Shown piece by piece: positions 16,275 through 29,837 of a stretch of DNA of 64,000 bases. Position 1 is the stretch's first letter, and the number at the start of each line of letters is the position of its first letter. The translations under genes and the position numbers were made by a program. Under the pieces are notes generated by a model that saw nothing but the letters and a program-made list of their open reading frames with translations, had not been told where the DNA came from and did not search any database. The DNA lies in NCBI GenBank assembly GCA_965116595.1, contig OZ220708.1, positions 2,212,041 through 2,276,040 of the forward strand. The letters are read 5' to 3'. This stretch comes from Arenicellales bacterium (GTDB lineage: Bacteria > Pseudomonadota > Gammaproteobacteria > Arenicellales > Poriferihabitantaceae).

Positions 16275-17246
16275 ATGATGGGATCAGTTTTATCTCGCCG
16301 GATGGTGGTTGTCCTTGTATTCTGGTTTCTCCCGGCGCATGTTTTTGCGGATCCGTTTGACTGGTTGATGAAAATCAGCAAGGCAGCGGCGGATGTGAAT
16401 TTTATCGGTACGCTGGTATATACCAATAATGGTGAAATCAAGACCATGGAGGTGGCGCGCAGAATCCAGGATGGATTGATGCAGGAGCGCATCTATTCAC
16501 TTGATGGAGAACCCAGGGAGATAATTCGCAGCGAGGACAAGGTCTGGTTTTATATCCCGGACAAGAACATGGTTGTCCATGACTACCGGCAGGTTACGAA
16601 AAGTGGCTTCCCGAGAATCCTTCCGGACGACCTGGATCAATTAAAGCAGAACTATGGTTTTGAGGAAGGCGAAGAAAAACGCATTGCCGACCGGGTGGCG
16701 ATAGAGATAAAGGTGATTGCCAATGATGCCTGGCGATATGGGTATACCCTTTGGGCTGACAAGCATTCAGGTCTGCTTTTAAGGTCTGATCTGGTCAGCC
16801 AGGACGGTGAGATTGTTGAACAATACCTGTTTGCCGATATCGAAATCAACGGTGTAATTACTGATGCCCAACTGGCCCCGGTGAGCAGCGCCGACAAGTT
16901 GCGTTTATTCGGAAATTCGGAGCCGATGCCCGAGTCTTTCGAATCTTCTGAGTGGTCAGTCACTAAACTCCCTGATGGCTATCAATTGAATAATCATATT
17001 CGCAGGATGTCGCCGATGGGGAAGGGTGAAATCGAGCACTTTGTATATTCCGATGGGTTGTCGACTTTGTCCGTATTCATCAAGAAAACCAGTCAGAATC
17101 AGGGCGAAATGACGGGTCTGGGCAGAATGGGCGCCGTGCATGCCTACCGTACCCGTATTGGCAATCATCTTGTCACTGTGATCGGAGAAGTCCCCGCAGA
17201 AACCGTACAGGTGGTTGCACGGGGTGTTCAACTCAACAAAGGCTGA
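16275..17246 (+). CDS. rseB: Sigma-E regulatory periplasmic protein RseB/MucB
   Basis: Signal peptide; SLDGEPREIIR, GLLLRSDL, HFVYSDGLSTLSVFI and VTVIGEVP. Confidence 0.9.
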   Translation: MMGSVLSRRMVVVLVFWFLPAHVFADPFDWLMKISKAAADVNFIGTLVYTNNGEIKTMEVARRIQDGLMQERIYSLDGEPREIIRSEDKVWFYIPDKNMVVHDYRQVTKSGFPRILPDDLDQLKQNYGFEEGEEKRIADRVAIEIKVIANDAWRYGYTLWADKHSGLLLRSDLVSQDGEIVEQYLFADIEINGVITDAQLAPVSSADKLRLFGNSEPMPESFESSEWSVTKLPDGYQLNNHIRRMSPMGKGEIEHFVYSDGLSTLSVFIKKTSQNQGEMTGLGRMGAVHAYRTRIGNHLVTVIGEVPAETVQVVARGVQLNKG

Positions 17247-17345
17247 TCCCAACCAACCGGATTTTGCCCCTGATTGGTCGAAGCGGGTTATTTATACAAT
17301 CGCTTCGGAGTATGATAGCCACTTACAATCCTGCGTGTGTCTTGA

Positions 17346-18869
17346 ATGGAAAAAGAGAATTATGTTGCCGCAATAGATCTGGGATCCAACAGTTTTCATA
17401 TGGTGATTGCCGATGCAGGTGATCACGGCAGCATAAAAATCATGGATCAGTTGAGGGAAATGATCCGATTGAATGCAGGTCTTGATCAGGATCGGAATCT
17501 GTCCGGGGAAGCCCAGAAAAGAGCCCTGGAATGCCTGCACCGGTTCCGTCAATGCCTGACCGGCATTCCAGCTCACCGGATACGGGCTGTCGGTACCAAT
17601 ACCTTGAGAAACGCACGAAACAGTGATGCGTTCCTGAAATGTGCGGAAGCAACTCTCGGACACCCGATTTCAGTGGTTTCAGGTCATGAGGAGGCGCGGC
17701 TTGTTTATCTTGGCGCAGCGTTTGATCTGTCTACTCGCGGTAAAAAAAGACTGGTTGTCGATATTGGCGGCGGAAGCACGGAACTGATTGTGGGAAAAAG
17801 CCATAAACCATTGCACATGGATAGCCTTGAAATCGGCTGTGTCAGCCTGACGCGAAATGTCTTTGACGATGGCTGTATCACCAAATCCCGGTTCAAGCGT
17901 GCAAAGAATCTCGTTTCGATGGAATTACAGCCGGTCATCGGAGCCTACCGCAAGCTGAAATGGCAGGAAGCCGTCGGCACATCGGGAACGATAAAGGCAG
18001 TAGACAGGGTCGCGAGGGAATTGGGCATGGAGCGGGACTGGGTATCCGCAAAAAGCATGGCTGAAGTAAAAAAATGGATTCTGGATACGAAACACAGTCA
18101 CTTGCTCAGCCATGTTTCTGATCAACGAAGGCCAGTATTTGCGGCTGGATTCGTGATTCTATCGACAATTTTCGAAGAGCTTGGAATCAATAGAATGGAT
18201 ATTTCTCAGGGCGCCTTGAGGGAAGGGGTTGCCTATGATCTGATTGGACGGTTGCATGATGAAGATTCGAGATTTCACGGGGTGGCTTCGTTGGTAACAC
18301 AGTTCAAGACTGACCCGGAGCAGGCGAACCGGGTTCAGAATCTGGCAATCCGTTTTCTCGATCAGGTCAAGGACGATTGGGACCTGCAGGAGACTCTCAA
18401 CTATAAACTGCTTTACTGGTCAGCACGATTGCATGAGATCGGAATTTCTGTTTCATACGATCAATATCACCTGCATAGCGCCTATATAATCGAACACAGC
18501 AATATGGATGGATTTTCCAGACAGATCCAGAAAATACTTGCGCTGCTGGTCAGATGCCACCGACTCAAGATAGAAATCGATGCCATTGCAAGATTGCCCG
18601 ATGAATGGGTAGAGCGGATATCCAGACTGATTATTCTGCTCAGACTGGCCGTGACGTTTTATCGCAGTCGCTCGGATGTTGATTTATTCGGTATTCTGAT
18701 AAAAGTCAGTAACAGACAGGTGATTGTTTCCTACCCGAAAGGCTGGGGTAAGGCCCACCCCCTGACGGTGTTCGATCTTGAAAATGAAAGGCTCGTTTTT
18801 GAATCCATGGGGTATGGGTTGGAGGTCGGGATCAATTCAAATTGTACAGGCCGATTTCAGAAGGCCTGA
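17346..18869 (+). CDS. ppx: Exopolyphosphatase Ppx/GppA family
   Basis: AAIDLGSNSFHM, AVGTNTLRNA, SGHEEARLVYLG, VDIGGGSTE, GTSGT, GALREG and the HD-like LHEIG. Confidence 0.92.
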   Translation: MEKENYVAAIDLGSNSFHMVIADAGDHGSIKIMDQLREMIRLNAGLDQDRNLSGEAQKRALECLHRFRQCLTGIPAHRIRAVGTNTLRNARNSDAFLKCAEATLGHPISVVSGHEEARLVYLGAAFDLSTRGKKRLVVDIGGGSTELIVGKSHKPLHMDSLEIGCVSLTRNVFDDGCITKSRFKRAKNLVSMELQPVIGAYRKLKWQEAVGTSGTIKAVDRVARELGMERDWVSAKSMAEVKKWILDTKHSHLLSHVSDQRRPVFAAGFVILSTIFEELGINRMDISQGALREGVAYDLIGRLHDEDSRFHGVASLVTQFKTDPEQANRVQNLAIRFLDQVKDDWDLQETLNYKLLYWSARLHEIGISVSYDQYHLHSAYIIEHSNMDGFSRQIQKILALLVRCHRLKIEIDAIARLPDEWVERISRLIILLRLAVTFYRSRSDVDLFGILIKVSNRQVIVSYPKGWGKAHPLTVFDLENERLVFESMGYGLEVGINSNCTGRFQKA

Positions 18870-20112
18870 AATTGGACAGACAACCCATCGCGTCAAGCAC
18901 CGAGATCAAAAAACCATGTGCGGTTATTCTGCCCAGAGAGCCTGATATACAGTCTGTTTCATTATATTTATCCACCCGGTCCTTTCTTCCGAGCGGGTTA
19001 TAGATGGCTACAGGCACCGGGTCTCCGTTGTGTTCTCCGCAAAGGGAATCGGTAGAATGATCCGCACAAACCCCGACCACCAGATCACTCGTATCTATTT
19101 TTCCAAGTGCGGAATCGAAGCGTGAAATCAGGTCTGCTTTTGCCTGCGGGTCACGGTCGTGCGCCGCGATATCCATTCCCTTGATGTGAATGTATACCAG
19201 GTCATGGGTTTGCAAAGCCTCCATTGCCAGGCTGAGTTTCCTGTCCAGGTCGGTATCAGGCAGGGAGGTGAAAGCAGGGTCATTAATTGTCAAAAACCCG
19301 AGCAGTTTGCCCAATCCGATAATGGTGCTTTCACCAGCAACGATAGCAGCCGACAAATCCAGGTAGGCATGTATATTCCTGAAATCCCGGTGAATTCCTG
19401 CACTACGGGTAATTACTGCGTTGGCAGGCAACTCTCCTGCCCTGACTCTGTCGTTGTTGACCGGATGACTGTTCAGGATATCATGGGATTTCTCGAAAAA
19501 TCGGTTGACTGCCTGCGCGGTGCGAACGGCATCCTTGTCCGTGGCGCAAATTGCATGACATCCGAGAACTCCCTTTTCGATGTTCATTCCACCCGGGTCG
19601 GTGTCACTGACCAGTGCCGAAAGTTCAAGCCCTCTTAGCCGCAATACACAGCGATGTTGGGTGGCAGGGTACAGTGATGCTGTTATTCCATCCCCGACCT
19701 GAATGTCGTGCAGGGAATCACAGAGCGGTATGACACCCTGATTGATTCTGCCAGCCCGTCTGTCACGGATGCGGTAATGAGCGCCTTGTTTTTCAACGGT
19801 TGCCAGATTGGATCGAAATAAAAGATCACCCGCACTTGAGACCAGCCCGATCCCCGAAGCTTCTATCGGCCCTCGGCACAGTTTGGCTGCATCGTCCGGA
19901 GGTAACCCAAACAGAATGCCGACGCCCGTATGGGTATCCACCGGCAATCCTGGCAACAGCGGATCCATCAGTCCCGATTGTCCGTTTTGCGCCAACTGAT
20001 CCAATATCGGAGTGCTGGCATACTCGAGTGGAGTGAGACCACCGAGCTGAGGATTTGGACGATCGCCTAATCCATCGAGAATGATTATCAGACCTTTTAT
20101 ACGATTGTGCAT
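18832..20112 (-). CDS. Archaeal-type (ApgM/COG3635-like) cofactor-independent phosphoglycerate mutase family protein, alkaline phosphatase superfamily
   Basis: ILDGLGDRP, TPLEYASTP, RGPIEASG, FRSNLATV, DRRAGRI, HIKGMDIAAHD, ADHST and HNGDPVP. Confidence 0.85.
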   Translation of the reverse strand: MHNRIKGLIIILDGLGDRPNPQLGGLTPLEYASTPILDQLAQNGQSGLMDPLLPGLPVDTHTGVGILFGLPPDDAAKLCRGPIEASGIGLVSSAGDLLFRSNLATVEKQGAHYRIRDRRAGRINQGVIPLCDSLHDIQVGDGITASLYPATQHRCVLRLRGLELSALVSDTDPGGMNIEKGVLGCHAICATDKDAVRTAQAVNRFFEKSHDILNSHPVNNDRVRAGELPANAVITRSAGIHRDFRNIHAYLDLSAAIVAGESTIIGLGKLLGFLTINDPAFTSLPDTDLDRKLSLAMEALQTHDLVYIHIKGMDIAAHDRDPQAKADLISRFDSALGKIDTSDLVVGVCADHSTDSLCGEHNGDPVPVAIYNPLGRKDRVDKYNETDCISGSLGRITAHGFLISVLDAMGCLSNFRPSEIGLYNLN

Positions 20113-20140
20113 TCAAGTATCCTGATCAGGATTTTCCGAT

Positions 20141-21331
20141 TCAAGTGTACTGATTCCTGAGAGATTTGATTTCTCCCTGATATCTGGCTGATATGGTTTG
20201 AATAATGATCTTTATGAGATCCAGCGAAGTCTCGGTTATATCCCGGTTATCGATAATTTCGATATCTTCATTATCCGCCTCGAAAAGCAATGCAGTCTGT
20301 AGTTGCCAGATTTCATCCAGATTCTGCAAATACCGTTTTGCCCTGCGTTGCGTGTTTTTGGATGAACGGCCTTTGATAAATCTCTTCAGTCTGTTCCGGT
20401 CGAGTACAGCAAGGCACACCTGTACGGCCACCGTGTCACTCCTGGAATTAATTCGATCCAGAAGTGAAGGGCGAACATGTACTCCTTCCACGATCATCGA
20501 TACTTTTTCATTGAATGCCCTCTGTATGACTGCTTCGCAAGCGACCTCCACCATTTGTGTCTGCATCTGAAATCCATATAAAAGACGATCATCGGAATTA
20601 ATGCCGATATCCGCAATGTTTATCGCTTTGCCCGCCTTGAACGTAGAGGTATGCAGGGAAGGGGAGACTTTTTCCGGGATCGTGATTCGCATCACCTCCC
20701 TTAACATATCGGTAGACTGGGTTCGCACAATCCCGAGCCGGTTTGCAACTTCGGTCGCGATGGTACTTTTACCGCTTCCGGGCGCCCCTCCGATCAACAG
20801 AAACAAAGGGGTGTTGTTTTCGAGAACAAATCTCCACAGGAGGTAATTGTCGGCATGTTTTTGATCGACACGCTGCCTGATCGCAGAATAGGTCAGCCCG
20901 GTCAAATCCCGTGAGGAGATTTCGCGCGTTTTGTTGCTGACCAGATGGCTGTGAACATGACGGGTAATGGCATTACATTTTGCGTTATCGATTGCACAGC
21001 TTTGCAGCCTTTGAACATGGATTGCCCGGGAAAAAGGACCAGAACTGCCATCTACGCTTATTACACGGATGTTCTCCTTTGTAATATCCTCTTTTTTATA
21101 TCTTGAAAGTACTGCGCCCGGATAGTCGTCCGTTAGAATTTCCACTATCCGATCCCTTAATTCGACCGTACTCACATCGCCATAATCATCAAACTCCTCC
21201 CTGAGATTGCTGGCAACACGATAAGCATCGACGAACTCAAGACCTGCCTGATGCAAGGATTTGGTCAACATACCGCGCAAAAAGGGAACCCGTGTATCAT
21301 TCTCCTGGTCCACGACGACAAGTTTGGACAT
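20141..21331 (-). CDS. 2-phosphoglycerate kinase-like P-loop kinase (COG2074) with two N-terminal ATP-cone-like domains
   Basis: Two cone-like starts (RVPFLRGMLTKSL, GPFSRAIHVQRL), then LLIGGAPGSGKSTIATEVANRLGI, STDMLREVMR, LHTSTF, SMIVEGVH and RYLQNLDEIWQLQ. Confidence 0.8.
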   Translation of the reverse strand: MSKLVVVDQENDTRVPFLRGMLTKSLHQAGLEFVDAYRVASNLREEFDDYGDVSTVELRDRIVEILTDDYPGAVLSRYKKEDITKENIRVISVDGSSGPFSRAIHVQRLQSCAIDNAKCNAITRHVHSHLVSNKTREISSRDLTGLTYSAIRQRVDQKHADNYLLWRFVLENNTPLFLLIGGAPGSGKSTIATEVANRLGIVRTQSTDMLREVMRITIPEKVSPSLHTSTFKAGKAINIADIGINSDDRLLYGFQMQTQMVEVACEAVIQRAFNEKVSMIVEGVHVRPSLLDRINSRSDTVAVQVCLAVLDRNRLKRFIKGRSSKNTQRRAKRYLQNLDEIWQLQTALLFEADNEDIEIIDNRDITETSLDLIKIIIQTISARYQGEIKSLRNQYT

Positions 21332-21338
21332 ATCTGCT

Positions 21339-23483
21339 TTATCCGTCTGGTAGAGAATTCAGACTCGTGTGCAGTCTCGTGTAATATTCGAAATCAAGCA
21401 ATATCCTTGCGCTCTCGACCAGAAATGGATCAGTTTGATTCCTGGAAGTATTGACGGGATTTGCAAAGCTATCGTTTTGAGCCTCTTCGGCATCCAGCGA
21501 TTCAACTGACAGCAGCGCTGTTTTGCCTAATCCGGTTCGCCTCGCGTTTTCCAGTTCAAGCCGCTGCTGATCCCGGATTTTTCTCAACTGCCGGCGTTTC
21601 TCCTCGGACAGTGGAACCGTTTTCATCTGCCTGGTAATCCGGTTGATCAGATTTACTTCCCGGGCGTAAGTGAACTCGGGATTTTCTTTTGCCCGTCGCT
21701 GATGCTCGGAAATGATTCGATCCATCACACTGGAACCCGGTCTGGATCGATAGGGCAGGAATGCAACCGACCCGATCTGGCGCCACGGAATGGCATTGTC
21801 ATTACTGCGTTCGCCGGATTCGCTGTCCGTCTCACTGATATTCCATGTGATGTCAGGAGTGACACCGCGATACTGGGTACTGTCGCCGTTGACTCTGAAG
21901 AATTGGGCAATGGTTAACTTGAGTTCTCCGAGGTCAACATCAGAATCGAGGTGGTTGTTCAGATTTACGAGGTTTTGAACGGTGCCCTTGCCAAAAGTCG
22001 GCTCTCCAAGGATCAATCCACGATTGTAATCCTGGATCGCTCCCGCGAAAATCTCGGAAGCGCTGGCGCTGTTTTGATCAACCAATACCGCAAGGGGGCC
22101 ACTGTAAATGATCGCAGGATCCGGGTCACGATCTATCTCGGTGCCGTTGGTAAATTCAACCTGTACGATCGGGCCTGTACGAATGAACAATCCGGTCAAT
22201 GCGATTGCTTCGTTGAGTGCGCCACCGCCATTGCCCCGCAAATCCATGATCAGGCCGTCCGTGTTTTCATGTTCAAGCTCGGCCAGGAGTTTTTTGACAT
22301 CCCGGGTAGTACTTCGGTAATCAGGGTTATTGACATTTCTGCCAGCGAAATCGGTATAGAACGAAGGCAGTCGAATTACACCTATTCTGGAGGTAATGTC
22401 ATCGGTGGTAATGTCAATGATCTTTTTTGTGGCCGCCTGTTCTTCAAGTTTGATTTCGTCTCTGACGATAGCAATGATTTCCGGCTCGCTGTCCAGGCCA
22501 TTTTCAGCAGGAAGGATTTCCAGATTGACGGTAGACTCCTTCGGACCTCTGATCAGTGTCACGACATCGTCGAGTCGCCATCCAATGACGTCGACAATCT
22601 CCTCGCCCCTTTGTCCAACCCCGATGATACGGTCACCGGAATCCAGCTTTCCGGACAGATCTGCGGGTCCTCCGGGAATGACATTCCTTATCATGGTATA
22701 TTCATTGTCGTTTTGCAGAACTGCGCCGATTCCTTCCAGCGACAACCGCATCTGGATCATGAAGTTTTCGGCTCCCCTGGGAGAATGATAGGCGGTATTG
22801 GGCTCGATGCCCGTAAGATAGGAATTGATAAAACTCTGAAAAACATCTTCACTCTTCAACTGCCCCGTTCTTCGTGCAATATGAATGTATCGATTTTTCA
22901 GAGTGTCCTTGATCTCATACTCTGACTTTTCTGCCAGGCGCAGGTTGATAATGTCGTTTTTGATTCGCTTGCGCCAGTTATCATTGAGTTCGGCAATATC
23001 CTGTGCCCAGTGAGCCTCCCCGCGGTCCAGTAGATACTCCTCGTCAATCGTGAAATCGAAGGGTTGGTTCAGTCTGTCAATGGCAAATTCAATCCTCTGA
23101 TTCACCCGGGTCCGGTAAATCATGAAAATGGCGTAGGCGGGCTCCAGGAAGCCGTTATTGATGTAGTCATCGAATTCATGTTTCAGGGTTTCGATCTGGT
23201 CAATATCTTCCTTGAGAAAAAAACTTTTCGACGAATCCAGTTGATTGATGTAATTATCCAGGATTTTCTCGGAAAACCGGTCATCCAGAGGGATTGGGTG
23301 AAAATGCCGGGCTTTGATAATGGCATTGATCAGGGCCGTAATTGTCGCCTGCGTAGTATAGTTTCCCGAAATTTCCGTCTGTTCGAGTTCGCTCAGCTCG
23401 GAAGCAGGGGCATTGATGCTGAACAGGAGCGCCAGACCTGATGCAAACAGGAATTTACTGCATTTGGAATTCATCGTTGGCAT
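21339..23483 (-). CDS. prc: Carboxy-terminal processing (tail-specific) protease Prc/Tsp, S41
   Basis: Signal peptide; PDZ region LEGIGAVL...DVIGWRLDDVV; DLRGNGGG, SASASEIFAGAIQDY, FGKGTVQ and STQYRGVTPDI. Confidence 0.93.
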   Translation of the reverse strand: MPTMNSKCSKFLFASGLALLFSINAPASELSELEQTEISGNYTTQATITALINAIIKARHFHPIPLDDRFSEKILDNYINQLDSSKSFFLKEDIDQIETLKHEFDDYINNGFLEPAYAIFMIYRTRVNQRIEFAIDRLNQPFDFTIDEEYLLDRGEAHWAQDIAELNDNWRKRIKNDIINLRLAEKSEYEIKDTLKNRYIHIARRTGQLKSEDVFQSFINSYLTGIEPNTAYHSPRGAENFMIQMRLSLEGIGAVLQNDNEYTMIRNVIPGGPADLSGKLDSGDRIIGVGQRGEEIVDVIGWRLDDVVTLIRGPKESTVNLEILPAENGLDSEPEIIAIVRDEIKLEEQAATKKIIDITTDDITSRIGVIRLPSFYTDFAGRNVNNPDYRSTTRDVKKLLAELEHENTDGLIMDLRGNGGGALNEAIALTGLFIRTGPIVQVEFTNGTEIDRDPDPAIIYSGPLAVLVDQNSASASEIFAGAIQDYNRGLILGEPTFGKGTVQNLVNLNNHLDSDVDLGELKLTIAQFFRVNGDSTQYRGVTPDITWNISETDSESGERSNDNAIPWRQIGSVAFLPYRSRPGSSVMDRIISEHQRRAKENPEFTYAREVNLINRITRQMKTVPLSEEKRRQLRKIRDQQRLELENARRTGLGKTALLSVESLDAEEAQNDSFANPVNTSRNQTDPFLVESARILLDFEYYTRLHTSLNSLPDG

Positions 23484-23578
23484 TTATCGTTAGAGCTTCT
23501 GGATTCGATCATATCATTTTTCTGTGTCGGCAAATATCCGTTCCGGATTCAGGGCCAGCGCGGAGCATCTGCAGGATT

Positions 23579-24523
23579 CTACGGTTGCTTCCTTAAATTC
23601 CACAATCCGACACTGAGGCTATGACTGTCTGACCCCGCGGGCGACAATTGTTCCGCGCTGATCAGGTTGAGTCCACAATTTCCGGCCCACTGTGAAATCG
23701 ACTGCGGTGATATTCCAAGGCGGCGGTGGGCGTGTTTTTCCCTGAGAAATTCCAGGTCATGGGGGAGAAAATCGACGATGATCAGTTGACCGTGCGCGCG
23801 CAATACTCTGGTTGCTTCCCTGATAATTTTATCCGGTCTGTCCAGATAATGTAATACCTGATGGATTGTGATGGCATCGACGGAATTGTCTTCCAGGATC
23901 AGATTGCCAATGTCCTGATGCCGGACCGAACAATTCCTGGCGCCTGCCGTATCGAGATTGGAGCGTGCAAGCATCAGCATTTCCCTGGTTATGTCGATTC
24001 CGACTCCCTTTTTGATATAGGGAGAGAAAATTTCGAGAATTCTCCCTGTACCTGTGCCAAGGTCAAGAAACAGGTCCGGATATTCGATATCAAGACAGTC
24101 AATCAGTTTTTTCTCGACATAACTCTCCGGTACTGCGAGTCTGCGAATCGTATCCCACTCTGCTGCATTTTTACGAAAGTATTCGGCAGCCATGGCTGCA
24201 TTCCGGCTTTTGATTTTTTGCAGTTTGTGCTGATCGCGGGCGATGTCAATATCCTGCATGTCAATCAGGTCCAGAACTGACGAGATGAATTCGGCCGTTT
24301 TCCCGGTATCCGTGAGTCGGTGGAAGACCCATGCGCCCTCCGGATAACGCTGCACCAATCCGGCGTCGCACAGTAATTTCAAATGGCGGCTGACCCTTGG
24401 CTGGCTTTGTTCCAGTATTTCCATCAACTCAGAAACGGTCAGTTCACTATTGCGTAAAACCGACAGAATGCGCAACCGGGTGATTTCGGCCACGGCACGA
24501 AGCGCTGTAAGCAGAGGTCTCAT
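23579..24523 (-). CDS. ArsR-family HTH fused to SAM-methyltransferase-like domain (SahR-like regulator)
   Basis: TRLRIL...SQPRVSRHLKLLCDAGLV...EGAW, then FLDLGTGTG, HQVLHY, IVDF and EKHAHRRLG. Confidence 0.85.
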   Translation of the reverse strand: MRPLLTALRAVAEITRLRILSVLRNSELTVSELMEILEQSQPRVSRHLKLLCDAGLVQRYPEGAWVFHRLTDTGKTAEFISSVLDLIDMQDIDIARDQHKLQKIKSRNAAMAAEYFRKNAAEWDTIRRLAVPESYVEKKLIDCLDIEYPDLFLDLGTGTGRILEIFSPYIKKGVGIDITREMLMLARSNLDTAGARNCSVRHQDIGNLILEDNSVDAITIHQVLHYLDRPDKIIREATRVLRAHGQLIIVDFLPHDLEFLREKHAHRRLGISPQSISQWAGNCGLNLISAEQLSPAGSDSHSLSVGLWNLRKQP

Positions 24524-24574
24524 GTGATTGGCGGATATTACTGGGGAATGCCCTTCGTTTCGTCTTATGTCGAG

Positions 24575-24624
24575 TGTGTCGAATATGTCATAATTGTGTC
24601 GAATATGTCATAAATATTGTAACA
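24575..24624 (+). promoter_or_regulatory. Pho-box-like direct repeats upstream of pstS
   Basis: TGTGTCGAATATGTCATAA occurs twice (24575 and 24595). ATGTCAT-AATT-GTGTCGA resembles CTGTCAT-N4-CTGTCAT with 11-bp spacing. Confidence 0.55.
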
Positions 24625-24696
24625 CTGGCATCATACTGTAGACATGACAGAACCTTGGACTGATGCTGGCAGATTAACTGACTACGGAGTTATCCC

Positions 24697-25737
24697 ATGA
24701 AAAAAAGTATTGTTTCAGTTGCTTTGGCAACATTTATCGCAGGCACGGGTTCTGCCCAGGGCGCCCGCGATTATATCCAGATTGTCGGGTCATCGACCGT
24801 TTATCCGTTCGCGACGGTGGTAGCGGAGAAATTCGGTAAAACCAGTGGCTTCAAGACCCCTATTATCGAATCGACCGGTTCAGGTGGCGGCATGAAACTG
24901 TTTTGTGACGGAGTGGGTGAATCGCACCCGGATATTACCAACGCATCCCGTCGAATCAAGCTCTCGGAATTCGAAAAGTGCCAGGCCAATGGAGTGAAAG
25001 ACGTGATCGAAGTCAAGGTCGGTTACGATGGTATCGTGCTGGGTAATTCCAACGAGGTTGACCAACTGGAATTGACTCTGAGGGATATTTTCCTTGCGCT
25101 CGCCAAAGACGTTCCGAATCCCGATGGCAGCGAATCCACCATACCGAATCCCCACTCCAACTGGAAAGAGGTCAACGCGGCGTTGCCGGATTCGGAAATC
25201 GAAGTGCTGGGACCACCTCCCACATCGGGCACCCGCGACGCCTTTGCCGAGCTTGCTCTGGAAGGCGGCTGCAAGACATTCGACTGGATCAAGGCCCTGA
25301 AAAAACAAGACAAAAATGCGTATAAAGCCCTTTGCCATACTGTTCGCGAAGATGGGGCTTATGTGGAGGCCGGGGAAAACGACAACCTGATCGTGCAAAA
25401 GCTGCGGGAAAACGAAAAGGCGCTCGGCGTGTTCGGTTTCAGTTTCCTGGACCAGAATTCGGATGTCATCCAGGGTTCGATGATTGACGGTGTTCCGCCT
25501 GAGTTCGAGGCCATTGCGGATGGTTCATATCCGGTTTCACGCCCGCTTTACTTCTATGCCAAAAAAGCGCATGTCGGCCTGATCCCGGGTATTGCCGAAT
25601 TCATGGCGGAGTTTACGAACGAAGCGGCTTTTGGAGAAGAAGGCTATCTGGTGGACAAGGGGCTGATCCCGATGCCTACCAGCGAAAGAGAAAAATTCCG
25701 ATCCGATACGGCTAATCTGACTCCACTGCGTATGTGA
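24697..25737 (+). CDS. pstS: Phosphate ABC transporter substrate-binding protein
   Basis: Signal peptide; IVGSSTVYP, ESTGSGGG, NASRRIK, GPPPTSGTRD and YPVSRPL; first gene of pstSCAB-phoU. Confidence 0.95.
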   Translation: MKKSIVSVALATFIAGTGSAQGARDYIQIVGSSTVYPFATVVAEKFGKTSGFKTPIIESTGSGGGMKLFCDGVGESHPDITNASRRIKLSEFEKCQANGVKDVIEVKVGYDGIVLGNSNEVDQLELTLRDIFLALAKDVPNPDGSESTIPNPHSNWKEVNAALPDSEIEVLGPPPTSGTRDAFAELALEGGCKTFDWIKALKKQDKNAYKALCHTVREDGAYVEAGENDNLIVQKLRENEKALGVFGFSFLDQNSDVIQGSMIDGVPPEFEAIADGSYPVSRPLYFYAKKAHVGLIPGIAEFMAEFTNEAAFGEEGYLVDKGLIPMPTSEREKFRSDTANLTPLRM

Positions 25738-25762
25738 CAACCATTTTACATCAGTGTATCAT

Positions 25763-25797
25763 GCGGCCACCGGATTCTAGGGTGGCCGCTTTTTTTT
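25763..25797 (+). terminator. Intrinsic terminator-like hairpin between pstS and pstC
   Basis: GCGGCCACC-9 nt loop-GGTGGCCGC followed by T8. Confidence 0.8.
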
Positions 25798-25821
25798 GAG
25801 AAACAGGAAAAACACAGTTAA

Positions 25822-26826
25822 ATGAGTATTCTGGCGCTTCTTTTCGTGTTTTTCATCTTGGCTCCGTGCCTGATGCTGGTCGCATTGAGCCTGGCCAGGA
25901 AGAACCGGGCGTTAAGGAACCGGGTTGAAAGGGTGATCAAGACTTTTCTGATTGCCTGTACCAGCATCGCCATCCTGACCACGGTCGGTATCGTCCTGTC
26001 GGTGTTGTTTGAGTCCATCCGGTTTTTCAATGTTATCCCGATCACCGACTTTCTGTTTGGCCTGGAGTGGTCCCCCCAGACCGCTATTCGTTCCGATCAG
26101 GTGGGATCGTCCGGCGCGTTCGGAGCTGTTCCCCTGTTCGCCGGGACCTTCCTGATTACCATAATCGCGATGTTCATTGCTGTACCGTTCGGGTTGATGT
26201 CGGCAATTTACCTGTCGGAGTACGCCAACCGGCATGTGCGGACATTCGGCAAGCCCCTGCTTGAGATTCTGGCCGGCATTCCAACTGTGGTTTACGGTTT
26301 TTTCGCCGCTTTGACGGTGGCGCCGTTGATCCGCAATTCGCTGGAATCCTTCGGCATGAGTGTTTCCAGCGAAAGCGCTCTGGCGGCCGGGGTGGTTATG
26401 GGGGTGATGATTCTGCCCTTCGTGTCGTCGCTGTCGGATGATGTAATCAACTCCGTGCCCCAGGCATTGCGTGACGGTTCTTATGGACTCGGGGCGACCC
26501 GCTCGGAGACGATCCGGAGGGTTGTCCTGCCGGCCGCGCTGCCGGGTATCGTCGGCAGCATTCTGCTGGCGGTTTCACGAGCAATCGGGGAAACCATGAT
26601 CGTGGTGATGGCGGCGGGACTGGCGGCGAATCTGACTGCCAATCCGTTCGAGTCGGTCACCACCGTTACCGTGCAGATCGTCACCCTGTTGATCGGGGAT
26701 CAGGAATTCGACAGCCCGAAAACCCTGGCGGCGTTCGCGTTGGGACTGACCCTGTTCGCCATCACCCTGGTCCTCAATGTCATCGCCTTGCGGGTGGTCC
26801 GCAAATACAAGGAACAATACGAATGA
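25822..26826 (+). CDS. pstC: Phosphate ABC transporter permease PstC
   Basis: FGAVPLFAGT, AIYLSEY, KPLLEILAGIPTVVYG and SRAIGETMIV. Confidence 0.95.
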   Translation: MSILALLFVFFILAPCLMLVALSLARKNRALRNRVERVIKTFLIACTSIAILTTVGIVLSVLFESIRFFNVIPITDFLFGLEWSPQTAIRSDQVGSSGAFGAVPLFAGTFLITIIAMFIAVPFGLMSAIYLSEYANRHVRTFGKPLLEILAGIPTVVYGFFAALTVAPLIRNSLESFGMSVSSESALAAGVVMGVMILPFVSSLSDDVINSVPQALRDGSYGLGATRSETIRRVVLPAALPGIVGSILLAVSRAIGETMIVVMAAGLAANLTANPFESVTTVTVQIVTLLIGDQEFDSPKTLAAFALGLTLFAITLVLNVIALRVVRKYKEQYE

Positions 26827-28091
26827 CCCAGGTCGAGATCATCAAGGCGGGGTTGGCCAGGCGTTACGCGCGGGAAACCCGATTCCGTCTGTACGGGCTG
26901 TCATCGATTATTTGCGGGCTGGCCTTTCTGGTATTTTTGCTGGTTACCACCGGCTCCAACGGCTATACCGCGTTATTGCAGACGCATATCGGGCTGGATA
27001 TCCATCTGATGGCTGAGGATTTCGGGGGTGACCTGAGCCGGGAATCCCTGTCGAAGGCGGATTATGCCGGATTCATCAAGGCGGCGCTGCGCCAGACATT
27101 CCCGGAAGTCACCAAGCGCAAGGAGAAAAAAGCCCTCTACCGGATCATGAGTGGTGGAGCGCAATACCAACTACGCGAAAAAGTCATGGCGGACCCATCG
27201 CTGATCGGCAGGCCGGTGACCTGGTGGCTGCTGGCCGATGACGAGGTGGATGTTTTTGTCAAGGGCCGGATTGACCGGGATGTCCCCGAAAAGAACCGGC
27301 GGATCAAGGACATTACCATCGGATGGGTGGATCGGCTAGCGGAAGACGGCCGTGTGGAAAAACGCTTCAACATCCCGTTTTTCACCGCTGGCGATTCACG
27401 TGAGCCGGAGCAGGCGGGTATTTTCGGCGCCACGATGGGGTCCATTTTCACCATGCTGGTGACCATGCTGCTGGCTTTCCCGATCGGGGTCGCGGCGGCG
27501 ATTTACCTGCAGGAGTTCGCTCCGAAGAACCGGATAACGGACTTGCTCGAAGTCAATATCAATAATCTGGCTGCAGTTCCATCAATCATATTCGGACTGC
27601 TCGGGTTGGCAATTTATATCAACGCTTTCGGCCTCCCACGCTCGGTCCCGCTGGTAGGCGGGATGGTGCTGGCGCTGATGACGCTGCCCACTATCATCAT
27701 CTCCAGCCGCGCCGCTCTCGGAGCGGTGCCGCCCAGTATTCGGGAAGCCGCGCTTGGAGTGGGCGCTTCGCCGGTGCAGACCGTGCTGCATCATGTGGCG
27801 CCGCTGGCGATGCCCGGCATGCTGACCGGAACCATTATCGGACTGGCCCAGGCGCTGGGTGAATCGGCGCCCTTGCTGGTGATCGGGATGGTGGCGTTCA
27901 TCGTTGACGTTCCCGGAGGGCCGCTTGAGCCGGCTACGGCGCTGCCGGTGCAAATATACCTGTGGTCAGACAGCCCGGAACGCGCGTTTGTCGAACGTAC
28001 CTCGGCTGCGATCATGGTTCTGCTCCTGTTCCTGATTGCGGTCAATGGATTGATTGTCCTGTTAAGGAAGAAGTTTGAACGCCGCTGGTAA
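26823..28091 (+). CDS. pstA: Phosphate ABC transporter permease PstA (long periplasmic insertion)
   Basis: DSREPEQAG, EVNINNLAAVPSIIFG, VPPSIREAALGVGAS and AQALGESAPL. Confidence 0.95.
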   Translation: MTQVEIIKAGLARRYARETRFRLYGLSSIICGLAFLVFLLVTTGSNGYTALLQTHIGLDIHLMAEDFGGDLSRESLSKADYAGFIKAALRQTFPEVTKRKEKKALYRIMSGGAQYQLREKVMADPSLIGRPVTWWLLADDEVDVFVKGRIDRDVPEKNRRIKDITIGWVDRLAEDGRVEKRFNIPFFTAGDSREPEQAGIFGATMGSIFTMLVTMLLAFPIGVAAAIYLQEFAPKNRITDLLEVNINNLAAVPSIIFGLLGLAIYINAFGLPRSVPLVGGMVLALMTLPTIIISSRAALGAVPPSIREAALGVGASPVQTVLHHVAPLAMPGMLTGTIIGLAQALGESAPLLVIGMVAFIVDVPGGPLEPATALPVQIYLWSDSPERAFVERTSAAIMVLLLFLIAVNGLIVLLRKKFERRW

Positions 28092-28112
28092 CCACAACTT
28101 CGATATGACACT

Positions 28113-29003
28113 ATGAGTACACTCACTGACAGAACCGCGGACACAATGAATGCAGCGACAGAGGAGCAACGGACAGCCGTTGATCCGAACTTTGATGACC
28201 CGGTCCTGAATCCGGATTTCAAGACGTTCGGCAACGTTCATGTCGATGATCCCGCAATGACCAGCCGAAACGTCAATGTGTCTTATGGCGACAAGCAGGC
28301 CATTTTCGATGTGTCTCTGGATATCGCGAAGAACGAGGTGATTGCGATGATCGGACCATCCGGATGCGGGAAATCCACCTTCCTGCGTTGTCTGAACCGG
28401 ATGAATGACACGATTGACGGGTGCAGGGTGTCCGGCAGCATCAAATTGTACGGTGAAGATATCTACAGCAAGGACATGGATGTGGTTCTGCTTCGCGCCC
28501 GGGTGGGTATTGTCTTCCAGAAGCCCAACCCGTTCCCGAAGTCATTGTATGAAAACGTCGCATACGGAGTAAAGCTGCATGGGCTGGCGGGCAGTAAATC
28601 CGAATTGGACGATATTGTGGAAAGCAGTCTGCGTAAGGCGGATTTGTGGAAAGAAGTTGCCGACAGGCTGGACAAGCCCGGAACCGGTTTGTCAGGCGGT
28701 CAGCAACAAAGGTTGTGCATTGCGCGGGCCATTGCCATCAGCCCCGAGATCATTCTGATGGATGAACCCTGTTCCGCTCTTGACCCCATTGCGACGGCAG
28801 CCATTGAAGAGTTGATCGACGAACTGAGAAAGCAATATTCAATCTGCATTGTGACTCACTCCATGCAACAGGCAGCCCGGGTTTCACAGAGAACAGCCTA
28901 TTTCCACCTGGGCAGGTTGGTGGAAGTCGGTCCCACCGGCGCCATCTTTACCAACCCCCGGCACCGGCTGACAGAAGGGTATATCACTGGCCGTTTTGGC
29001 TGA
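28113..29003 (+). CDS. pstB: Phosphate ABC transporter ATP-binding protein PstB
   Basis: [50 protein letters not shown] and YITGRFG. Confidence 0.96.
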
Positions 29004-29039
29004 CCGGATCCGATTTTACCGTTTAGCGGGATAACAATC

Positions 29040-29837
29040 ATGAACATTCAAGATGAAAGACATATTTTCAAGCGTTTTGATAATGAAATGCAGTATCTCC
29101 ATAACCTGGTCTTGCAAATGGGCAAGCTTGCGGTCAGTCAGCTTGAGGACGCCCTGGATACCCTGAAAACCGAGAATCCGGAAAAAGCATACGAAGTTAT
29201 CAGCAATGATAAAAAACTGAATGATCTTGATTCGCAGGCGGATGACGAAATCATCCGCCTGATAGCTTTACGCCAGCCTGTTGCCAGGGACTTGAGAAAA
29301 CTGATCTCAGTCGGGAAAATTGTCGCGGAACTGGAACGATCCGGCGATGAAGCCAGGAAAATTGCCGGCTTGACTATTCGTTTTTTCAGAGCGGGTAAAA
29401 CCCCGCCGAGCGAAGAAATATTACGCGATATCCATTCTCTTTCCGCTTATGTGATCAATATGCTGGATATGGCCATGCAGGCATTTGATGAGCTGAATCT
29501 TGATCTTGCGGCAGATGTTCTGGTCGAAAGCGCAAAACTGGATGATCAGTTGAAATCAATACTGCGGCGTCTGAGCACATTCATCATGGAGGATTCCAGG
29601 AATGTCGGCCATTTCGTGGATATTGTGCTTGGCATTCGGGCGCTTGAACGATTCGGTGGGCATAGCAGTAATATAGCCGGACATATCGTATTTATCGAAA
29701 AGGGGATAGACGTGCGTCATACAGACGATAAAACCATTTTACGCAATATCAGGGATGTATATATCAAGGAATTCGATTCAGCCCTGAGCGAAGAAGCCCG
29801 TATGCGCAGCAGCGGGGAAGAAAATCAGAAACAGTAG
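29040..29837 (+). CDS. phoU: Phosphate signalling protein PhoU
   Basis: HIFKRFDNEM, IALRQPVARDLR, ELERSGD and RALERFGGHSSNIA; lies after pstB. Confidence 0.92.
   Translation: MNIQDERHIFKRFDNEMQYLHNLVLQMGKLAVSQLEDALDTLKTENPEKAYEVISNDKKLNDLDSQADDEIIRLIALRQPVARDLRKLISVGKIVAELERSGDEARKIAGLTIRFFRAGKTPPSEEILRDIHSLSAYVINMLDMAMQAFDELNLDLAADVLVESAKLDDQLKSILRRLSTFIMEDSRNVGHFVDIVLGIRALERFGGHSSNIAGHIVFIEKGIDVRHTDDKTILRNIRDVYIKEFDSALSEEARMRSSGEENQKQ

Follow-up and report, generated by a model that had tools for sequence, protein, structure and literature searches.

The window analysed here is a 64,000-nucleotide stretch of the genome of an Arenicellales bacterium (contig OZ220708.1 of assembly GCA_965116595.1, positions 2,212,041 to 2,276,040, forward strand). 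On its reverse strand lie, one after the other, a gene for a 2-phosphoglycerate kinase (2PGK)-like protein, here called the kinase, and one for an ApgM-like phosphotransferase, here called the mutase-like gene (Table 1). The two genes are functionally coupled and separate from housekeeping glycolysis, and they sit among phosphate genes that recur around their relatives. The initial annotation of this DNA, made from the sequence alone, had described a tight arrangement, and its distances agree with the sequence: 7 nt separate the prc stop codon from the kinase ATG and 28 nt the kinase stop codon from the mutase-like ATG, 38 nt (18832-18869) belong to both the mutase-like gene and ppx, and the pstSCAB-phoU operon begins 3.4 kb from the kinase start.

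Table 1. Coordinates of the features discussed, in positions of the window
Feature	Positions	Strand	Basis or remark
Kinase, 396 aa, 2-phosphoglycerate-kinase-like (COG2074 family), ATP-cone / P-loop	20141..21331	-	ORF call, Pfam, NCBIfam
First ATP-cone-like module of kinase, residues 1-80	21092..21331	-	Weak Pfam match and secondary structure
Second ATP-cone of kinase, residues 89-167	20831..21067	-	PF03477, E 4.2e-10, 40.5 bits (cut-off 25.8)
P-loop kinase domain, residues 172-396, with GGAPGSGKST, QSTDMLREVMR and EGVH	20144..20818	-	
Mutase-like gene, 426 aa, ApgM-like alkaline-phosphatase-superfamily phosphotransferase, Thr-type	18832..20112	-	PF10143, PF01676, TIGR00306
Thr60 codon of mutase-like gene, aligned to Ser of GSDTAH in solved ApgMs	19933..19935	-	HMMER alignments to 2zkt and 3idd
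prc (tail-specific protease)	21339..23483	-	Family profiles; 7 nt upstream of kinase
ppx, Ppx/GppA-family exopolyphosphatase, convergent with mutase-like gene	17346..18869	+	PF02541 (E 1.5e-70), PF21447
ArsR-family HTH fused to SAM-dependent methyltransferase, 314 aa	23579..24523	-	
pstS-pstC-pstA-pstB-phoU, phosphate uptake and signalling operon	24697..29837	+	Family profiles

The three motifs by which the kinase had been recognised (GGAPGSGKST, STDMLREVMR and VEGVH) are all present in its translation. Pfam finds a single ATP-cone over the cut-off, followed by weak matches to numerous P-loop kinase families; the N-terminal 88 residues match the ATP-cone at E 8.7e-4 and 20.2 bits, below the cut-off of 25.8. 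In the AlphaFold model (mean pLDDT 85) a strand-strand-helix-helix-strand-helix-helix pattern occurs at residues 5-80 and again at 89-171, ahead of a Rossmann-like kinase domain. Because the model repeats this one fold pattern, the two ATP-cone-like repeats that had been proposed hold, the first of them being the weaker. The best Foldseek match of the model is the class I ribonucleotide reductase of Pseudomonas aeruginosa, which carries a duplicated ATP-cone; gluconate kinase, adenylate kinase, UMP/CMP kinase and the kinase domain of PFKFB3 are among the others. When solved structures were searched with the kinase sequence, the matches were limited to P-loop stretches of adenylate-kinase-like proteins.

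The best NCBIfam matches of the kinase are the two 2PGK models PRK04220 (263.5 bits, cut-off 343; E 2.7e-78 over profile positions 12-301 of 306) and PRK12337 (230.4 bits, cut-off 603), and the model for mevalonate-3-phosphate 5-kinase scores 58.6 bits. It belongs to COG2074 in the broad sense, with an ATP-cone followed by a P-loop domain carrying STD.LRE and EG.H and with homology over the full length. Thus, of the family assignment first made, the grouping with 2PGK and not with mevalonate-3-phosphate 5-kinase stands, with the qualification that the clade of the window kinase lies outside the group that reaches the NCBI equivalog cut-off. In a library of representatives at 50% identity, the kinase has 180 relatives with a limit of E<=1e-30, rising to 752 when the limit is E<=1e-10. 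The PRK04220 cut-off was reached by 14 of the 51 representatives scanned from the 150 listed for the family (300-aa forms, 480-aa forms and two of about 390 aa), and by none of four members of the window clade (P0145, P0148, P0158 and P0171; 248.8-253.3 bits). In a midpoint-rooted FastTree tree of the kinase domains of 135 sequences, the window clade is separate from those that reach the cut-off. When it is compared with the clade reaching the 2PGK cut-off, the kinase-domain positions conserved at 85% or more in both are identical in 29 cases and different in two, which argues for the same or a very similar chemistry in the two clades. The shared sites include T207, D208, R211, E212, R215, H227, S229, R271, E282, H285, R322, R329 and Y334. 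In the databases such kinases are called 2-phosphoglycerate kinase, zeta toxin family protein, AAA family ATPase, ATP cone domain-containing protein or hypothetical protein.

The mutase-like protein matches PF10143 and PF01676 in Pfam and scores 325.0 bits on the apgM subfamily model TIGR00306, barely over its cut-off of 320. It misses the apgM equivalog models (PRK04024, 339.2 bits against a cut-off of 489; others, 200.6 against 468 and 187.8 against 426), and two further members of the ApgM family, PhpG and a proposed homoserine kinase, give 207.6 (cut-off 545) and 175.4 bits. Its nearest solved structures are ApgM 2zkt (E 3.1e-66) and 3idd/3kd8. We aligned 84 ApgM-like sequences, namely the window protein, those of related loci, the C-terminal halves of 19 fusions (see below) and three outsiders of the family that have no kinase beside them (L103-L105). 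The 81 kinase-linked forms have P-V-x-T-H-t-G in common where solved ApgMs read G-S-D-T-(A/S)-H and the outsiders G-S, and at least 90% of the 81 retain Thr60, as do the Thermoanaerobaculia-type fusions displayed. Residues T60, H61, T62 and G63 are invariant in a 17-sequence alignment (A2), as are the DRRAGRI and HR motifs of solved ApgMs and the metal ligands D13, D17, D314, H318, D351, H352 and H361, which align with the corresponding residues of 2zkt and 3idd. The Ser of the GSDTAH loop is presumably the phosphorylated nucleophile of ApgM, by analogy with Ser62 of iPGM; the window protein reads THTGV where the solved enzymes read SDTAH or SDTSH. Because the metal ligands and DRRAGRI/HR are kept while the Thr loop is invariant, the mutase-like proteins are best classed as a distinct Thr-type ApgM subfamily whose catalytic residues are predicted to be intact. 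The earlier description as an archaeal-type mutase is thus right as to the ApgM family and has to be amended as to the subfamily, which is a separate one with Thr in place of the Ser of solved ApgMs.

A scan of species-representative genomes for relatives of the kinase gave 532 stretches, and we used the best 80 loci (40-94% kinase identity). At 60 of the 80 the gene next downstream, on the kinase strand, is ApgM-like, with a median of about 90 nt between the tblastn matches, and at one further locus the contig ends within such a gene. Loci of the Arenicellales type share the order arsR-methyltransferase, prc, often valine-pyruvate transaminase, kinase, mutase-like gene, convergent ppx and rseB-rseA-rpoE, and the pair is kept without any of these neighbours at loci labelled Chromatiaceae, Sedimenticola, tubeworm endosymbiont and others. 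The transaminase gene, which stands between prc and the kinase at 32 loci and is not in the window, was taken as a bystander. An even class-level sample of 401 gammaproteobacterial genomes (400 of them scored for the kinase) holds strong ApgM-like matches (E<1e-90) in five genomes, each beside the kinase, and three weaker matches to the ApgM family (26-33% identity) in genomes free of the kinase. Since the strong match always lies beside the kinase, it is the mutase-like gene that depends on the kinase, while the kinase does not depend on it; the kinase forms the core and the mutase-like gene is optional.

The two proteins also occur as one chain. Kinase and mutase form a single 850-aa ORF at the class-sample locus L093, and of 22 matches in a search limited to longer proteins 19 are clusters of 811-843 aa that combine the kinase with both mutase domains; some of these go by the name "phosphoglycerate mutase" and come from assemblies of Xanthomonadales and Thermoanaerobaculia. 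A metagenome scan with an alignment of the fusions gave 60 loci, in 28 of which, judged by match span, a single match extends over more than 700 of the query's 811 residues. Fusions stand at four or more separate places on the kinase-domain tree. Together with the 60 of 80 loci at which the two genes adjoin, these natural fusions show the pair to be co-conserved, as the reading in the initial annotation required. The model of the natural fusion P0140 has confident domains (pLDDT 84.2), but with a pTM of 0.54 and a low-confidence linker it supports no fixed arrangement of its halves.

The mutase-like gene is not the housekeeping glycolytic mutase, nor is it the only phosphoglycerate mutase gene of its genome: the source genome carries a canonical gpmI (G000:C1:2417342-2418904; 396.2 bits, cut-off 330.65), and gpmI is over the cut-off in three of the four other pair-bearing genomes, the fourth (G315) being a 95% complete assembly in 810 contigs. 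The source genome itself is one contig of 2.71 Mb, 97.8% complete. Two further roles were considered for the kinase and dropped: that of a substitute polyphosphate kinase, because the genome has both ppk1 and ppk2 (the latter at C1:2706680-2707339), and a link to autotrophy through abundant 3-phosphoglycerate (3-PG), RuBisCO being found in four of five other kinase-bearing genomes and not in the source genome. We note that ppk1 (G000:C1:2202832-2203368) lies about 9 kb left of the window and roughly 28 kb from the kinase.

The phosphate genes beside the pair are not peculiar to the window, and they recur around distant homologues and fused forms. Genes pst, pit or phoU are found at 17 of 33 distant loci, and at 16 of the 20 distant loci with at least 9 kb. 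Three orders were seen there: kinase, mutase-like gene, pstS, PhoU-domain protein, pstC, pstA, pstB; kinase, mutase-like gene, phoU_div (DUF47), pit, an unnamed 205-aa protein and a metallophosphoesterase; and kinase, phoR, phoU. At two distant loci the pst operon is divergent and upstream. In the class sample, where the neighbourhoods of 18 kinase loci from 14 genomes were covered, phosphate genes adjoin the kinase at ten, from ten of the genomes: L089 reads pstC-pstA-pstB-phoU-kinase in one orientation, and L090, L092 and L094 (three genomes of one family) have pit on one side of the kinase and a divergent ppx on the other; a divergent ppx is also present at L093. At Arenicellales-type loci ppx adjoins in 24 of 47 and pst in seven. 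Loci with the fused form have pst, pit, phoU or ppx in nine of 60 by tblastn with gammaproteobacterial probes, many of these loci being short, and pstS-phoU-pstCAB is among the arrangements found. A Pfam scan of 41 ORFs at eight of them added ppk1 (L108), a phosphate-selective porin (L117), a histidine kinase with an OmpR-type regulator (L120) and, at L113, a CHAD protein beside the ppx and pstS that tblastn had detected; at L107, L118, L122 and L124 it gave none of those phosphate genes, and the neighbours at L118 are just a PTP-like phosphatase and a HAD hydrolase. Since phosphate loci fill a few per cent of a 3-Mb genome, we infer that their frequency near the kinase is far above chance, related genomes being non-independent observations.

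Some neighbouring genes deserve mention in their own right. A 361-aa protein encoded between pstS and pstC (L051:9134-10219; also L053, L063, L064, L068, L076 and L081) has an N-terminal pair of PhoU domains, an unusual PhoU architecture, and a C-terminal half with a weak match to low-molecular-weight phosphotyrosine phosphatase/arsenate-reductase-like domains. The phoU_div (DUF47)-pit (PHO4)-205-aa protein-metallophosphoesterase block lies beside the kinase at L055:9030-13160 and at L059, L062, L070 and L160; its 205-aa protein has no family match and its metallophosphoesterase is 410 aa long. A SixA-like histidine-phosphatase gene (61.9 bits on TIGR00249, under the cut-off of 74.5) lies beside the kinase at seven loci from three separate lineages (L060, 542-1108; L066, L078, L088, L108, L112 and L121). 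Two kinase paralogues share one contig (L067 and L068), with a CHASE-domain histidine kinase and a response regulator between them. Phosphate-responsive loci of Flavobacterium listed in a preprint (bioRxiv 10.1101/719427) include genes for a ctpA-like protease, a phosphopentomutase (deoB) and a mutase of the gpmI type, which loosely resembles the presence of prc and an alkaline-phosphatase-superfamily "mutase" near pst in the window.

Pho boxes were sought with the E. coli half-site and an 11-bp spacing: the top matches in the window are not upstream of pstS or the kinase, and in 74 regions taken from upstream of the kinase, pstS or phoU_div the scores lie almost without exception within background, those of the pstS controls included. 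An E. coli-type Pho box matching at 13 of 14 positions was seen in the L093:7602 region, upstream of a phoU_div-pit pair that converges on the fused kinase-mutase gene. A consensus scan of positions 17000-25000 for promoters and terminators gave no more sites than shuffled sequence. The prc and kinase genes are probably co-transcribed; prc is upstream of the kinase at Arenicellales-type loci only, where the ArsR-HTH/methyltransferase fusion gene is a regularly kept neighbour of prc, and in the window this last gene is divergent from pstS. Metatranscriptome contigs of one library match prc, the kinase and the mutase-like gene over short lengths, with 95-100% identity; they span no gene junction, may reflect DNA carry-over and, being weak, are not counted as support.

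The kinase-mutase module is rare and patchy in its distribution. The kinase occurs in 16 of the 400 scored class-sample genomes, the source genome counted, is missing from both same-order genomes of that sample and, in a separate draw at phylum level, was not found in any of the other 400 genomes. The closest public relatives of the locus are metagenome-assembled genomes labelled Arenicellales, Candidatus Poriferihabitaceae and Candidatus Spongiihabitans. Related clusters in a language-model atlas are mainly from Pseudomonadota, Myxococcota, Deinococcota and Actinomycetota. A 2005 comparison lists COG2074 and COG3635 as both common to Thermus/Deinococcus and archaea (PMC1274311).

The interpretation first put forward is supported in part; the substrates, product, allosteric control and physiological role of the module are inferred. 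The explanation we favour, to which we give somewhat less than an even chance, is that the pair runs from 3-PG through 2-phosphoglycerate (2-PG) to 2,3-bisphosphoglycerate (2,3-BPG) under adenylate control, for phosphate homeostasis. The ApgM-like enzyme would interconvert 3-PG and 2-PG and thereby supply 2-PG, the kinase would phosphorylate 2-PG with ATP to 2,3-BPG, and the two N-terminal ATP-cone modules would tune the kinase to adenine-nucleotide status. The module would take its place in the phosphate economy with Pst/Pit uptake, PhoU/PhoR signalling and polyphosphate turnover, and a small bisphosphate pool would take up phosphate or report phosphate status. In its favour, the best family matches of both proteins act on phosphoglycerates, and to this we add the coupling of the two genes, the 29 identical kinase positions, the retained metal ligands and ApgM motifs, the separate gpmI and the recurrent phosphate genes described above. 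There are also two precedents: for one methanogen, cyclic 2,3-diphosphoglycerate (cDPG), to which 2PGK leads, has been discussed as a reserve of carbon and phosphate (PMC1224877), and phytate requires a plant 2PGK homologue (PMC4844270). A wider proposal, possible and in our view doubtful, is that scattered bacteria possess an ATP-cone-gated branch from phosphoglycerate to 2,3-BPG or a close relative, used as a phosphate buffer or status signal. Its carriers would be the sponge-associated gammaproteobacterium, sulfur oxidisers and the fused-form lineages, and the product would work alongside Pst/Pit, PhoU/PhoR and polyphosphate. If true, bacteria would possess an equivalent of the cDPG system of archaea and the phytate system of plants, with one kinase family at the base of all three.

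Several observations weigh against the favoured route to 2,3-BPG. The kinase falls under both 2PGK equivalog cut-offs, and in the tree its clade stands apart from those that reach them. The mutase-like protein has Thr for the presumed nucleophile Ser, and with this and the altered neighbours (SDTAH to THTGV) its reaction may differ. The ApgM-like gene is missing at 18 of the 80 loci in spite of at least 3 kb of downstream sequence (one more has no room for it) and in 11 of the 16 kinase-bearing class-sample genomes, so the mutase step is dispensable. No gpmA is over the cut-off in any of the five pair-bearing genomes, the source genome included; thus 2,3-BPG is not needed there as a dPGM cofactor, and that use of the kinase product was dropped. 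An ATP-costly 2,3-BPG also lacks an evident rationale beside ppk1 and ppk2, and no Pho box is demonstrable upstream of the kinase with an E. coli-type consensus that failed on the pstS controls too.

The altered loop leads to a different explanation, in which the two enzymes would make and break one compound and so set the level of a regulatory metabolite, after the model of 6-phosphofructo-2-kinase/fructose-2,6-bisphosphatase: the kinase would make 2,3-BPG or something similar, and the Thr-type ApgM-like enzyme, as a phosphatase or phosphotransferase and not a 2-PG/3-PG mutase, would remove or relocate a phosphate. The recurrent fused architecture of kinase and phosphoryl-transfer domain fits this, as do a nucleophile loop that departs from solved ApgMs (Ser to Thr, Asp to His, His to Val) next to an intact metal site, the SixA-like gene beside the kinase at 7 loci, and the PFKFB3 kinase domain among the Foldseek matches, with weak TM-scores and alongside many P-loop kinases. 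But the likeness to PFKFB3 is no greater than to any P-loop kinase, and the phosphoglycerate-binding motifs of ApgM, DRRAGRI and HR, are kept as in an ordinary mutase; on the whole we think this unlikely. It is just as unlikely, we believe, that the same enzyme families act here on another phosphorylated acid or polyol to give a phosphate-rich compound, with phosphoglycolate, phospholactate, phosphoserine, an inositol phosphate (cf. plant LPA1) or a phosphonate-type compound (cf. PhpG) as candidates. Such a substrate would agree with the placement of both proteins under equivalog cut-offs and with the breadth of the two families, ApgM taking in PhpG and the proposed homoserine kinase at the scores given above, and COG2074 taking in mevalonate-3-phosphate 5-kinase and a plant phytate-pathway protein (PMC4844270). 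Against it stand the almost complete match of conserved kinase positions with the 2PGK-scoring clade (29 the same, two different) and neighbourhoods that, where examined, hold no phosphonate or inositol genes.

The Thr at the nucleophile position has a parallel in phosphopentomutase, which has a Thr nucleophile and requires glucose 1,6-bisphosphate. The Thr-type ApgM-like enzyme might similarly need a bisphosphate primer, the kinase merely supplying catalytic 2,3-BPG, and the strong mutase-like gene is indeed never without the kinase in the class sample; but the kinase is alone in most of its genomes there (the 11 of 16), the phosphate neighbourhood goes with the kinase even without the mutase-like gene, and two ATP-cone modules seem excessive for primer supply, all of which makes this improbable. 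Those tandem modules, and the position of the kinase next to phoR-phoU (L066, L078) or at the end of pstCAB-phoU (L089), would suit a nucleotide-sensing NTPase or protein kinase that feeds PhoU/PhoR/Pst signalling and is no small-molecule kinase. This too we hold to be improbable, as the likeness to 2PGK runs over the full length with acceptor-side motifs conserved and the protein has been fused repeatedly to a metabolic phosphotransferase. Finally, the NCBI subfamily model would label the mutase-like protein apgM, as expected if a spare glycolytic mutase lay by chance beside an unrelated kinase; the order kept across contexts, the recurrent fusions and the strict dependence of the mutase-like gene on the kinase contradict this, and we regard it as very improbable indeed.

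How bacteria sense and buffer intracellular phosphate is unsettled, the known players being transporters, PhoU-type regulators and polyphosphate. Here a conserved enzyme module travels with phosphate transport, PhoU and polyphosphate genes in several unrelated lineages, in some of which it is fused. Should its product be 2,3-BPG or similar, as in the route we favour, a small-molecule phosphate pool or signal would be added to bacterial phosphate homeostasis, and three isolated observations on one kinase family would be joined: cDPG in methanogens, phytate in plants and the bacteria described here. The present naming in databases, anything from "zeta toxin family protein" through to "phosphoglycerate mutase", could be corrected. 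The enzyme families are already known. What appears not to have been described is the subfamily of Thr-type mutases, the obligate joining of its members to the kinase as a pair or a fusion, and the phosphate neighbourhood seen across lineages; a full-text literature search, with most subscription journals outside its coverage, returned no description of the bacterial module or of its link to phosphate, and within that scope the remark that no characterised example is known is upheld.

Among known systems, PhpG, an ApgM-like phosphonoformyl transferase, and phosphopentomutase illustrate that ApgM-like and alkaline-phosphatase-superfamily "mutases" can carry out other transfers; the mutase-like protein is far under the PhpG cut-off (207.6 against 545) and has no phosphonate genes nearby, and phosphopentomutase is of a different family. 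Like the fused forms, 6-phosphofructo-2-kinase/fructose-2,6-bisphosphatase joins a P-loop kinase to a phosphoryl-transfer domain on one chain and governs a bisphosphate, but its second domain is a histidine phosphatase and not of the alkaline-phosphatase superfamily, and the likeness is architectural, with low TM-scores. Plant LPA1 (OsPGK1) is eukaryotic and distant in sequence, an algal LPA1 being a weak match to the kinase (28% identity over 52% of the query); the substrate proposed for the plant protein is likewise unproven, and it is not known to have an ApgM-like partner. It is of the same kinase family nonetheless and is tied to the phosphate-storage compound phytate (PMC4844270). ApgM itself (2zkt, 3idd/3kd8; TIGR00306) shares its fold family, metal ligands, DRRAGRI and HR with the mutase-like protein, which differs in its THTGV loop, in not being a housekeeping enzyme and, within the class sample, in occurring solely as neighbour or fusion partner of the kinase. 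The 2PGK of Methanothermus fervidus (cDPG pathway, PRK04220) has the same ATP-cone and P-loop kinase and shares the conserved kinase-domain residues; the window kinase differs from it in scoring under the equivalog cut-off (263.5 against 343), in its extra N-terminal cone-like module and separate clade, and in being paired or fused with an ApgM-like enzyme, amid phosphate genes, in a mesophilic sponge-associated gammaproteobacterium.

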